A DNA stretch of 64,000 nucleotides. Source: an uncultured Candidatus Cloacimonadota bacterium (lineage in GTDB: Bacteria; Cloacimonadota; Cloacimonadia; JGIOTU-2). Below are positions 52,146 to 54,131 of the stretch, in pieces. Each line of letters begins with the position of its first letter. Position 1 is the stretch's first letter. The notes beneath the pieces are model-generated. The model ran no database searches and was not told the origin of the DNA. It worked only from the letters and a program-made list of their open reading frames with translations. Position numbers and translations under genes: made by a program. The DNA lies in contig CAYNOU010000004.1 in assembly GCA_964398885.1 (NCBI GenBank), positions 1,257 through 65,256 on the forward strand, given 5' to 3'.

Positions 52146-52316
52146 CTATAGTCTTAGGGGTTCTTTCAATTCATCAATACATACAGCCTTATAATTTATT
52201 TGAAATAATGCCTTACAAACCAAGCATTGACATTTTAAGCTTATCCATTCATCATCATATAGTTCTCTATAAGAAAGATACCAATCAGAGTCACAAATAG
52301 GACATCTAACCCCCAT
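52146..52316 (-). CDS. Small zinc-ribbon protein (CPIC...CQC..C), part of inserted cassette
   Basis: MGVRCPICDSDW...LKCQCLVCK: four Cys in CxxC/CxC...C spacing. Start trimmed to avoid overlapping the upstream gene. Confidence 0.35.
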   Translation of the reverse strand: MGVRCPICDSDWYLSYRELYDDEWISLKCQCLVCKALFQINYKAVCIDELKEPLRL

Positions 52317-52336
52317 AGTTTCTATAGTTTTTGCAT

Positions 52337-53635
52337 TTATAGTTTCTCTTGTAGACACTTTAGTGCCTCCATTGATTTTTGTTGTTGACTCTCCCAAAAT
52401 TGTTCTGAAAAAATTAATTTATATTGATTATCTCTTCTTTCCAGCCAATTTATTAGCGGTGAGGATAGTTCAATTAAAGACTCTTTCAATTCACCGTCAG
52501 TTATTTTAAAACCTCTCACTTTCAGATGGGCTTTAATATCAGCATAACCCAAAACCTCACCAACATTCGTAAAAATAGAAATAATAGCTTCTCTTATATT
52601 GAGTTTTTTTAACTTTTGTTTTAAGTAGACCTCCACATTTGTCTTTATATCTCCATGCTCTCTAAAGAAATATTGGAATTCTATTGGTGATAGTGGATAG
52701 TTAAAAGTAAATCGCATTAATGTAATAATTGTCTCACTATTTATGAAAAATCTTTTTTCGGTTTTTAGATCCTCAATCAATTGTGAAGTAGGATTATCGC
52801 ATACAATTAGTCCAATGAGATTTGACAGCCCACCCTTATTTTCGTATCGTCTAATATGCCTGTTCAGTTCGTCAATAATATTAACCCCTACGTTTCCCTT
52901 TGTTGAACGACACTCAATACCAATGCAAAGGGGTGATATGCAAATTACATCAAGTTCTCCACTTTGACCGCTTGTTTCTTTATCTATCTCAAATCCCCAA
53001 AATTCAAATAGGCTTAAAATAAATTTCTCAAGTTTATTGCCTTCTCCAGAACTCAAAAGCTCTATCACCTGCACTTCATCAAATATGGTTTTTTCTTTGC
53101 GAATTATTCTTATTTGAGGAATCTCAATTTTCTTTTCGGCAGATATAGTTTCATATTCTGCGTCTTTCTGAATTTTCGCAATAACACTTGCTACTTTATC
53201 AGTCAATGAGCACTTATCAAATGCATTGATATATTTGTTTACCTCTATAATGCCTAACTCAGTAAACCTTATGCGAAAATCGGCTTTTCTTTTTGTCACC
53301 AAGACATTGAATTTTATATTTCTATCAGGATATACTTTTGTTTTCTGAGTTAGTTCTAAAAAATCTTTTCCATCAATTGTAAGAATTTGCGAGAGTGAGC
53401 CACATATAATAAATATGGTCAAATTTTCTTGCTTTGCTAATGATTCCTGAACTAATCTTTTGTTCACTTGTAAATAGTAATTTTCACTTTCCGCTTCTTT
53501 GCCAACTTTTTCTTTAAATGTAATATACAGCAAATTTCCATTAACCTTATATAAGGTTCTTTGCCTTCCTTTTAATTTCTCAACTTGGATATTATTTTCT
53601 TCAAATAATTTTATGAGCTTATCTTTTAGATTCAT
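52337..53635 (-). CDS. Mrr_cat-type (PD-(D/E)XK) restriction-endonuclease-domain protein with novel N- and C-terminal domains
   Basis: The central SGELDVICIS...IGIECRSTKGNVGVNIIDELNRHI matches the Mrr catalytic pattern (D-G-x-[IV]-D ... [IV]-[QE]-C-[KR] ... GNVGV..[IV]..EL). ATGA overlap with the upstream MTase fragment. Confidence 0.5.
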   Translation of the reverse strand: MNLKDKLIKLFEENNIQVEKLKGRQRTLYKVNGNLLYITFKEKVGKEAESENYYLQVNKRLVQESLAKQENLTIFIICGSLSQILTIDGKDFLELTQKTKVYPDRNIKFNVLVTKRKADFRIRFTELGIIEVNKYINAFDKCSLTDKVASVIAKIQKDAEYETISAEKKIEIPQIRIIRKEKTIFDEVQVIELLSSGEGNKLEKFILSLFEFWGFEIDKETSGQSGELDVICISPLCIGIECRSTKGNVGVNIIDELNRHIRRYENKGGLSNLIGLIVCDNPTSQLIEDLKTEKRFFINSETIITLMRFTFNYPLSPIEFQYFFREHGDIKTNVEVYLKQKLKKLNIREAIISIFTNVGEVLGYADIKAHLKVRGFKITDGELKESLIELSSPLINWLERRDNQYKLIFSEQFWESQQQKSMEALKCLQEKL

Positions 53636-54117
53636 ATTTTATACTCAATAAGTGAAGCTTCGTGCGTTGTAGTTCCACAGCCATTATATGGGTCAAGGAT
53701 TAAATCCCCTTCTTTGATATTAAAAGCATTGATGATTGTTCTTACAATCCGTGGATAAAATTTACCTTTGTATGGATATAAATTATGAAATGCATAAGCA
53801 TTTGTATCCCCAAATAAATCAATGAGGTTTGAATATAATGTAGGTTTACTATCAACTATATCCAAATGAGCAATTCTTTTTCTTATGTTCTCATAATCAT
53901 TATTAAAATATACTTTATGATTTATAGCATCTATTTTGTAATCTTTTGTTAATCCTGAAAGTTCTAAATTCAAGAATTGTATATCCGCTAAAGTCTGCAT
54001 CCAAAAGCCAAAGACGTTTCCCTCTTTTGGCTGATAATTATTTGCTTCTTTTGAATACTCTTTCAGAATTTCTTCAAAAGAGGGATATTTTGTTCTTTTT
54101 TCAAATAAATTCTGCAT
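53632..54117 (-). CDS. Beta-class DNA amino-methyltransferase, C-terminal fragment only (motif I present, DPPY motif absent)
   Basis: YPYKGKFYPRIVRTIINAFNIKEGDLILDPYNGCGTTTHEA matches HPTxKP...GDxVLDPFxGSGTT (SAM-binding motif I). No motif IV. Only 14 bp, containing AAGGA, separate it from the fabD stop. Confidence 0.55.
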   Translation of the reverse strand: MQNLFEKRTKYPSFEEILKEYSKEANNYQPKEGNVFGFWMQTLADIQFLNLELSGLTKDYKIDAINHKVYFNNDYENIRKRIAHLDIVDSKPTLYSNLIDLFGDTNAYAFHNLYPYKGKFYPRIVRTIINAFNIKEGDLILDPYNGCGTTTHEASLIEYKI

Positions 54118-54131
54118 GCTTTATGTCCTTA

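Follow-up and report, generated by a model that had tools for sequence, protein, structure and literature searches.

Between fabD and fabG of an uncultured Candidatus Cloacimonadota bacterium lies an insert of about 2 kb, in which a resident restriction-modification (RM) operon appears to have been overwritten by a mobile cassette made of a nuclease-like gene and a zinc-ribbon gene. We give this reading a probability of roughly 0.7; sequence comparisons support the evolutionary anatomy of the insert well, and we infer its biochemical function. The analysis covered the window, a contig stretch of 64,000 nucleotides (nt) to which all positions refer unless another locus is named. In it, the minus strand carries the genes in the order rpmF-plsX-fabH-fabD, insert, fabG-acpP-fabF-rnc. 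An earlier note on this DNA had described the three open reading frames (ORFs) of the insert as one module. That the insert is foreign and about 2 kb long was borne out, and the ORF positions, the 14-nt gap with its AAGGA and the ATGA coupling are read directly from the sequence. The unity of the module did not survive the comparison with related loci, since ORF1 comes from the resident RM operon (it is full-length in locus L015) and ORF2 is separately mobile together with ORF3, the zinc-ribbon gene (hereafter Zn). The insert and its immediate flanks are laid out as follows.

54132..55118, minus strand: fabD, the left flank (Pfam Acyl_transf_1, E = 2.9e-34), 80% identical to the fabD of L015.
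54118..54131, minus strand: spacer of 14 nt between the fabD stop (54132-54134) and the ATG of ORF1; it contains TAAGGA and is collinear with L015.
53632..54117, minus strand: ORF1, 161 amino acids (aa), the N-terminal third of a methyltransferase, ending in GDLILDPYNGCGTT.
53636..53665, minus strand: left recombination junction; about the last 8 methylase codons (EASLIEYK) are donor-like, not L015-like.
52337..53635, minus strand: ORF2, 432 aa, a three-domain nuclease-like protein containing GELDVICIS...IECRSTKGNVGVNIIDEL; its gene overlaps ORF1 in ATGA.
52146..52358, minus strand: ORF3 (Zn), a stand-alone four-cysteine zinc ribbon, 70 aa if read from the GTG at 52358.
52037..52145, minus strand: spacer of 109 nt between ORF3 and fabG, in which no remnant of the endonuclease gene of the parent operon (R, see below) is recognisable.
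51296..52036, minus strand: fabG, the right flank (Pfam adh_short_C2, E = 2.9e-73).

Five independent metagenome assemblies (L010-L014) contain the same layout of ORF1, ORF2 and ORF3 at 100% identity, which rules out a sequencing or assembly error. Base composition does not separate the insert (GC content 0.28-0.35) from its flanks, and there is no terminator-like site in the 109-nt spacer before fabG. Direct adjacency of fabD and fabG was found only in a distant genome (L038). All related loci discussed here are metagenome-assembled genomes (MAGs) or metagenomes, and their taxonomic labels rest on binning.

ORF1 contains an N domain, a motif X-like YPYKGKFYP (the string 'HPTxKP' that had been quoted for it is not in the sequence) and motif I, DPYNGCGTT; it lacks the catalytic motif IV. 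A profile of ORF1 homologues retrieved 132 proteins, as well as 79 genome loci in many bacterial and archaeal lineages, all of them MAGs. The longer relatives continue past motif I with '...THEASLMGIKSVGIDITPMG...ELKNDL...', reach 'AIITSPPYYFS' and extend for about 110 more residues, so that the full-length order is N domain, X, I, (II), about 130 aa, IV (SPPY) and C end (L065 6872-8275; P0063, P0083, P0103). Their SPPY lies about 150 residues downstream of the breakpoint. Because motif I comes first and SPPY later in these proteins, ORF1 corresponds to the N-terminal third of such a Type II methyltransferase; its earlier assignment to the C-terminal half of a beta-class methylase does not hold. 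The PADLOC MTase_II models align their N-terminal parts to ORF1, and Pfam N6_N4_Mtase matches it with 26.2 bits, slightly below the cut-off. The absence of a catalytic motif, on the other hand, had been correctly seen: none of the six frames of 52000-54200 contains a (S/N/D)PP(Y/F/W) motif, and motifs I and IV do not occur together in any ORF of the 64-kb window. We could thereby reject a sequencing error or frameshift hiding a full-length methylase, given that motif IV is missing in every frame and that the independent assemblies are identical.

In about 65 loci the methylase is one intact ORF, M, of about 430-470 aa (PADLOC MTase_II, up to 1.6e-35), and the dominant architecture is M followed by one of two partners, R or R'. 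The partner has about 420 aa, begins within about 10 nt of M and carries an invariant D...E-x-K (D142...E167-x-K169); R and R' are 26% identical to each other and matched no known Pfam, NCBIfam, PADLOC or PDB entry. The methylase has one match in IMG/VR. In the window, only motif I is left of the motifs I and IV of a Type II methylase, and there is no adjacent cognate endonuclease: R/R' is gone, with no trace of R in tblastn searches of the window with R, R' and R_N70, and ORF2 is not the cognate partner.

The parent operon (L065:6872-9553; about 65 further loci among L015-L093) is widespread, its M has a conserved N domain of about 110 aa, and it is apparently a two-gene RM-like system not previously characterised. 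One canonical copy, near cas5d (L008:7001-9338), looks as if it were decaying: the methylase is split after SPPY (329 + 108 aa), motif I reads NGSRTT in place of NGSGTT, and R is split into ORFs of 183 and 108 aa with about 80 residues near its N-terminus gone. On a low-coverage long-read contig ('2x'), both valS and the methylase are broken into several ORFs (L009:2928-3767 and 5453-7168); these breaks are probably assembly frameshifts rather than biology.

The state of the fabD site before the cassette arrived can be read from L015, a Cloacimonadota MAG (JACNFI010000139) in which a full-length M lies directly after fabD, at the same position as ORF1 in the window. The earlier note had considered that the same three genes might be a lineage feature of this site; the site is indeed occupied in the related species, but by an intact methylase. 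The two genomes are 82% identical in plsX and 77% in fabH, and ORF1 matches the N-terminal part of the L015 methylase at 94% of aa positions in the multiple alignment (92% by tblastn). Their nucleotide identity is about 90% across the 3' end of fabD, the spacer and ORF1 until about 53,690-53,670, and then drops below 50%. Identity of this order at a shared site implies that the RM operon entered the fab operon before the two lineages split. At the left junction, the identity of the window to L073, a donor-like locus, climbs from about 65% to more than 90%, and the crossover from resident (L015-like) to donor (L073-like) sequence falls at about 53,655-53,665. On the other side, the similarity to L073 ends at the stop of ORF3.

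The junctions between methylase and ORF2 fall into a few types. In type A (the window, L073, L046, L001 and others, at least 8 loci) M runs to '...HEASL(M)G(G)IK' and the ATG of ORF2 follows within about 3 nt; a nucleotide alignment of eight loci places the end of the methylase-derived sequence about 3 nt short of this ATG. Upstream of the ATG is a purine-rich stretch, presumably a Shine-Dalgarno site (GGAG/GAGG in L046 and L001, GAG in the window). Indels of 1-2 nt give the type A loci different frame relations (a 4-nt overlap, a 17-nt overlap, a 3-nt gap), and these differences in frame and spacing rule out a programmed frameshift between ORF1 and ORF2. In type B, associated with a second ORF2 subfamily (35-41% identical; L003, L006), the junction lies about 75 nt further downstream, after 'ELKNEL'. 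About 90 aa of M are left in L104, and in L106/L108 ORF2 stands behind a different protein of 189 aa with a winged helix-turn-helix. This 189-aa ORF of L106 was considered as a third methylase stump and rejected, its similarity to methylase motif X being weak and confined to its last 16 residues (E = 0.05), a hint at most. We found no terminal repeats, target duplication or recombinase at the cassette, and the only repeats were short, AT-rich and attributable to chance. The tail of Zn, 'RAVGID(I/V)I.G', resembles the 'KSVGID(I/V)TPMG' that follows junction A in M (16/20 nt in the best pair, 13-14/20 in others), a weak hint that in the founding event the cassette may have inserted cleanly, with the codons for GIK on one side and those for SVGID on the other.

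Close homologues of ORF2 (n = 44, 429-445 aa, all from metagenomes or MAGs) follow a truncated M in all loci with sufficient contig reach. The zinc-ribbon gene comes after ORF2 in most loci and is missing in the archaeal L003 type. An intact methylase was never found with the cassette, neither in about 25 loci nor in the annotated neighbourhoods or the 64-kb window. In its best-preserved form the locus consists of the M stump, ORF2, Zn and an R without its first ~70 codons (L046, L073, L094, L095, L100); R is in fragments in L001/L099/L105 and in L006, and there is none in L003 or the window. Either R or R' is found behind the same cassette. The surrounding genes differ between loci as follows.

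L001: rhomboid ... dnaE.
L003/L004/L018: leuB, leuCD, on an archaeal contig with L37ae and SUI1.
L006: purF-purM.
The window: fabD and fabG.

Two variants of the right end deserve mention. The N-terminal 70-residue part of R survives after Zn in L102 (1724-1843; 95% to the L065 query, residues 29-68), and the right junction is thus not always at R codon ~70. In L001 (9278-9706) and L105 (594-1043), the Zn ORF continues in frame into the last ~80 residues of R, and the resulting protein has 142 aa; this fusion is an intermediate stage of R decay.

The segments of these loci have conflicting histories. ORF2 of the window is 91% identical at the amino acid level (about 92% in nucleotides) to its counterpart in L073, a locus binned as Syntrophoarchaeum, and ORF1 is 63% identical between the same two loci. 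L073 and L094 share 99-100% of nucleotides over ~1.56 kb, a stretch that takes in ORF2, Zn and R up to about codon 15; in the flanks, identity is only ~75% on the side of the M stump and ~60% on the side of R. For every stump there is an intact M with 81-96% identity, which in most loci equals or exceeds its similarity to any other stump. The synonymous divergence (dS) of the stumps is saturated, that of ORF2 ranges from 0.03 to 0.9. Hence, the cassette entered already-diverged members of the RM family many times, and the comparisons indicate that ORF2 and Zn are a mobile cassette of ~1.5 kb, separate from ORF1. In each of the 13 loci whose contigs span the stump, it is an open frame, and its length follows the breakpoint (ORF1 of 93 to 209 aa). 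The ratio of nonsynonymous to synonymous substitution rates (dN/dS) was discarded as a test of post-insertion selection on ORF1; it is uninformative because the divergence of the stumps predates the spread of the cassette. A phage or plasmid origin of the cassette was likewise rejected, with no match to ORF2 in 50,697 phage records, 72,556 plasmids and IMG/VR.

The fold of ORF2 was examined on an AlphaFold model built from a 27-sequence alignment (predicted local distance difference test, pLDDT, 80.7). Residues 1-148 form a degenerate restriction endonuclease-like domain without catalytic residues, which has its best structural match in I-Ssp6803I, a homing endonuclease of the PD-(D/E)XK class. 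Structure comparison identifies residues ~187-300 as a FokI/Mrr-like cleavage domain with E203, D229 and E241-C-R243, and residues ~300-432 make up a helical linker and a winged helix. The restriction-endonuclease fold that had been suggested for this protein is supported by these comparisons. As to the more specific Mrr/PD-(D/E)XK pattern, the fold is FokI/Mrr-like, Pfam Mrr_cat reaches 19.9 bits against a gathering score of 21, and the catalytic Lys is Arg. With Mrr_cat below its gathering score, the assignment of a nuclease fold rests on the structure comparison instead. Arg243 is invariant in the 27 aligned members of the ORF2 family, which depart in this from the Mrr-type D...(Q/E)xK.

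An exhaustive profile search found 202 distant relatives of ORF2. In a superfamily alignment of 126 sequences (ORF2 and 125 of these relatives), the catalytic positions are distributed as follows.

E203: Glu in 122/126.
D229: Asp in 123/126.
E241: Glu or Asp in 122/126.
Position 243: Lys in 117/126; Arg only in ORF2 and a close relative, P0165.

The dN/dS of ORF2 is ~0.13, indicating purifying selection and hence that the non-canonical site is maintained. Nuclease activity is plausible. Many of the distant relatives carry DUF1802, or in one case ParB_N, instead of the N domain of ORF2. Proteins of ~450-500 aa with an ORF2-like nuclease and winged-helix half have the canonical ExK (P0172-P0191 and others); these DUF1802-type solitary nucleases are apparently an unstudied family, and in the literature searched DUF1802 came up in a single paper.

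PADLOC v2 returned no family at E <= 1 for ORF2 or for ORF3, NCBIfam gave no assignment for either, and sequence searches with ORF2 and R against the PDB found nothing meaningful. Membership of a known anti-phage defence system was rejected on the PADLOC and NCBIfam results. The ORF2 family, without an assignment in Pfam, NCBIfam or PADLOC, appears to be new by these searches.

Three starts are available for ORF3: a GTG at 52358 with a GGAGG at 52366-52370, a TTG at 52397 that gives the maximal ORF, and an ATG at 52313 (56 aa). The GTG is the most likely start by its sequence context. The identification of ORF3 as a zinc ribbon holds for a four-Cys ribbon, with two corrections: it would have 70 aa rather than 56, and in the family alignment its invariant ligands are CxxC...CxxC (C19, C22, C45 and C48 of the 70-aa form), not CxxC...CxC..C. 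The family comprises 66 clusters of 57-116 aa, none fused to another domain, and all matches of ORF3 to the Pfam zinc-ribbon families and Lar were below threshold. A Trm112-like activator role was considered and rejected (NCBIfam Trm112_arch, 15.5 bits against a 77-bit cut-off). So was a Trm11/Trm112 pairing of ORF1 with ORF3, for which the scores are far below the cut-offs; Zn also follows unrelated RM systems.

Two such systems were found. One is a second cargo, in which another RM pair, itself complete, is followed by Zn: M2 (435 aa) + R2 (~329 aa) + Zn (L088:7342-9881, L112:3707-6246, L047:1378-3918), lodged in the same M...R frame at other left breakpoints, with M cut at ~129 aa or ~405 aa. 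The other, in L118, is a complete system of C-protein, beta-class M3 and R3, then Zn, without canonical M/R flanks (PADLOC MTase_II 6e-76 for M3, REase_II 1.6e-94 for R3). Because the zinc-ribbon gene ends several cargos, it is a recurrent 3' accessory of restriction-type cargos; its candidate roles are those of a regulator, a nuclease partner or an antagonist of R. A Zn gene common to different cargos appears to be a new observation.

One Zn variant of the M2-R2-Zn form, P0312, occurs on 22 contigs. The third Zn-ended unit (L118:115-4295; L116:987-6189) adjoins a serine recombinase in L118 and cas1-cas2 in L116, and ~1.3 kb downstream of its Zn is without a called gene.

In the explanation that we favour, an ancestor acquired a mobile Type II M-R operon between fabD and fabG, and in the lineage of the window a ~1.5-kb ORF2-Zn cassette then replaced everything from just behind motif I of M onward. 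The same cassette entered many M-R copies in bacteria and archaea, each time leaving an intact M stump reading into ORF2. That the catalytic half of one methylase family is replaced time and again, and nearly precisely, in both Bacteria and Archaea appears not to have been described before. What is left of M could hardly methylate DNA: motif IV is missing, and the Rossmann fold stops after the first strand and helix. ORF1 would then serve mainly as a transcribed and translated leader for ORF2, a role that fits the open stump in all 13 loci and the fact that ORF2 brings essentially no upstream DNA of its own. As ORF2 travels without a methylase, it must spare unmodified self DNA. Most probably it is a nuclease that either depends on modification (Type IV-like) or has some other narrow target, with two DNA-binding modules beside its FokI/Mrr-like cleavage domain and the unusual E-D-ExR site; the Type IV-like reading by itself has somewhat less than even odds. 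Nucleases specific for methylated DNA come into conflict with incoming methylases (PMC2993543), and replacing the catalytic half of M would remove the methylation that a Type IV-like ORF2 could attack. Cutting into R in the same event would avoid post-segregational killing by an orphaned R.

Several observations weigh against this explanation or parts of it. An R without its ~70 N-terminal residues keeps its D, E and K in several loci though M is gone. The stump is intact everywhere and its amino acid sequence is highly conserved, so a function of its own is possible for ORF1, and dN/dS cannot split the history of the stump into the time before and after the invasion. The presence of Arg for the catalytic Lys throughout the ORF2 family means that nuclease activity is not assured, and the winged helix has generic structural matches only. 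Finally, a presence in archaea is independently clear only for L003/L018, which carry archaeal ribosomal genes; the label of L073 depends on binning.

The overwriting of one restriction-type element by another has precedents with which this case can be compared. In Helicobacter pylori, hrgA replaces the restriction gene hpyIIIR and M is kept active. There as here, an unrelated gene takes the place of one portion of the Type II RM system that occupied the locus; in the loci that we describe, it is the catalytic half of M that is replaced, and R is truncated or lost. The earlier note had thought it unusual that such an insert is embedded in a housekeeping operon. However, the insertion of RM systems into operon-like clusters and the allelic substitution of RM loci are documented (Furuta, Abe & Kobayashi 2010, PMC2853133), and relatives of the insert are found at leuB/leuC, after purM and before dnaE; the fab location is therefore not exceptional in itself. 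The documented RM units share with the insert their position amid housekeeping genes that point the same way, and the lack of a transposase or integrase, and the documented loci share the swap of one restriction-type set for another at the same locus, with a partial M left. They differ in that the incoming unit is here a solitary nuclease with a Zn gene and not an RM pair, and in that entry occurs inside M, at recurrent breakpoints, repeatedly across phyla and domains and by near-identical copies.

ORF2 itself resembles the winged-helix fusion Type IV enzymes, which have been found beside genes of N4mC/6mA methylases inactivated by frameshift, a situation read as conflict avoidance (PMC11037411). 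Like these enzymes and DpnI, ORF2 joins a nuclease to a winged helix and stands alone, without a cognate methylase. Unlike them, it has three domains and a FokI/Mrr-like ExR cleavage domain that is not DpnI-like, no sequence relationship to the characterised winged-helix sensors was detected, and it is the nuclease gene, not a frameshift, that truncates the methylase. Compared with the Type IIS enzymes FokI and BspD6I and with the Mrr-type domain (PF04471; AF1548), ORF2 has Arg for Lys and no cognate methylase, its cleavage domain lies in the middle of the protein, and its Mrr_cat match stays below the gathering threshold.

Among the other explanations, homing comes first, and we hold it to be unlikely. 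ORF2 would cut intact M near the motif I/II region, or at the M-R junction, repair would copy ORF2-Zn into the break, and Zn would neutralise the orphaned R; the cassette would then be parasitic on this RM family and not a defence gene of its host. Free-standing homing genes split or truncate host genes, as in the intronless homing of seg/mob in T-even phages, and I-Ssp6803I, the best match of the ORF2 N domain, is itself a homing enzyme with a PD-(D/E)XK fold. As with free-standing homing endonucleases, the nuclease gene lies in a conserved host gene and is mobile relative to its flanks, the co-conversion tracts are short (at either end, exchange stops no further than ~30-40 nt from the cargo), and there are no terminal repeats, target duplication or recombinase gene. 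Cassettes in divergent M backgrounds share the junction after ...HEASLMG(G)IK, and by inserting, the cassette breaks up the target that it would putatively cut. Nucleotide conservation in M has local peaks at junctions A and B, and the similarity between the Zn tail and M would fit a clean insertion. However, there are at least three left junctions (A, B and L104/L106), with more in use by other cargos (L088, L047), and the downstream part of the host gene is deleted where homing endonucleases preserve it. Other parts of M are more conserved in DNA than the junction regions, and the Zn-tail similarity is short and weaker outside the best pair. Catalytic residues are missing from the homing-like N domain, and Arg stands in for Lys in the central domain. 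Ordinary homologous recombination in conserved patches accounts for the same data.

A more elaborate version, in which ORF2-Zn is a selfish parasite of RM systems of a kind not recognised before, would have the cassette target intact copies of one widespread Type II M-R operon, wreck the catalytic half of M and the N-terminus of R together, use the stump for its own expression, neutralise R through Zn and spread across bacterial and archaeal phyla. We regard this as doubtful.

ORF2 could also be a dead or otherwise non-cleaving DNA binder, such as a regulator or an anti-restriction factor, that silences or replaces the RM system, which seems to us improbable. The invariant Lys-to-Arg change at a position where most of the superfamily has Lys would be explained in this way, as would the degenerate nuclease fold of the N domain, a weak match to a Pfam family of 'inactive restriction endonuclease' and the tolerance of ORF2 in the absence of any methylase. 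Yet E203, D229 and E241 are invariant at a dN/dS of ~0.13, and dead nuclease domains usually lose such residues. Variants at the third motif position are moreover found among active PD-(D/E)XK enzymes, including BamHI and BglII.

The possibility that the insert encodes a three-component defence system, with ORF1 as a functional subunit (an S-adenosylmethionine or DNA sensor, or a scaffold) acting with ORF2 and Zn, is in our judgement slight. It draws on the intact frame of ORF1 in 13/13 loci, its 81-96% conservation among many cassettes, its constant translational link to ORF2 and the weak Trm11/Trm112-like matches of ORF1 and ORF3. Against it, ORF1 varies from 93 to 209 aa, is reduced to ~90 aa in L104 and is replaced by the unrelated 189-aa ORF in L106, and it ends inside the Rossmann fold. 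Since an intact M with 81-96% identity exists for every stump, the conservation of ORF1 is inherited from functional methylases. The Trm112 match, moreover, scores 15.5 bits against a cut-off of 77, and the archaeal L003 cassette has no zinc ribbon.

The last alternative, that the insert is simply a decayed RM system with ORF2 as the restriction enzyme that originally belonged to ORF1, takes its appeal from a methylase fragment adjoining a nuclease-fold protein and is already contradicted by the sequence data, which leave it very little probability: the partner in ~65 canonical loci is R or R' and never ORF2, ORF2 begins in the middle of a methylase gene, and the ORF1 and ORF2 phylogenies are incongruent. 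The earlier note had offered a decayed RM system or a Type IV-like nuclease; each is partly apt for the overwritten operon that we favour, with the correction that the cognate endonuclease is R/R' and not ORF2.

If an RM operon was overwritten as we propose, what looks like a 'novel three-gene defence module' can be the mark left by two restriction-type elements in conflict, and truncated methylase ORFs beside nucleases should be checked against full-length relatives before being called functional subunits. ORF2 brings together two folds of the restriction-enzyme type, a winged helix and an E-D-ExR site, and crosses between bacteria and archaea almost unchanged, always at the cost of the same RM family. 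The loci would offer a testable case of solitary nucleases, Type IV-like or of the homing type, displacing an RM system without killing the host. They also bear out that small RM-derived inserts can persist stably within essential, highly expressed operons, and they point to the recurrent zinc-ribbon gene at the 3' end of several RM cargos as an accessory.

A minor observation concerns the downstream part of the fab operon. The longest ORF of fabF (window 49603-50925, minus strand) starts ~30 codons ahead of MKPKKVVVTG..., the conserved KAS start, and the true start of fabF is probably the internal ATG.

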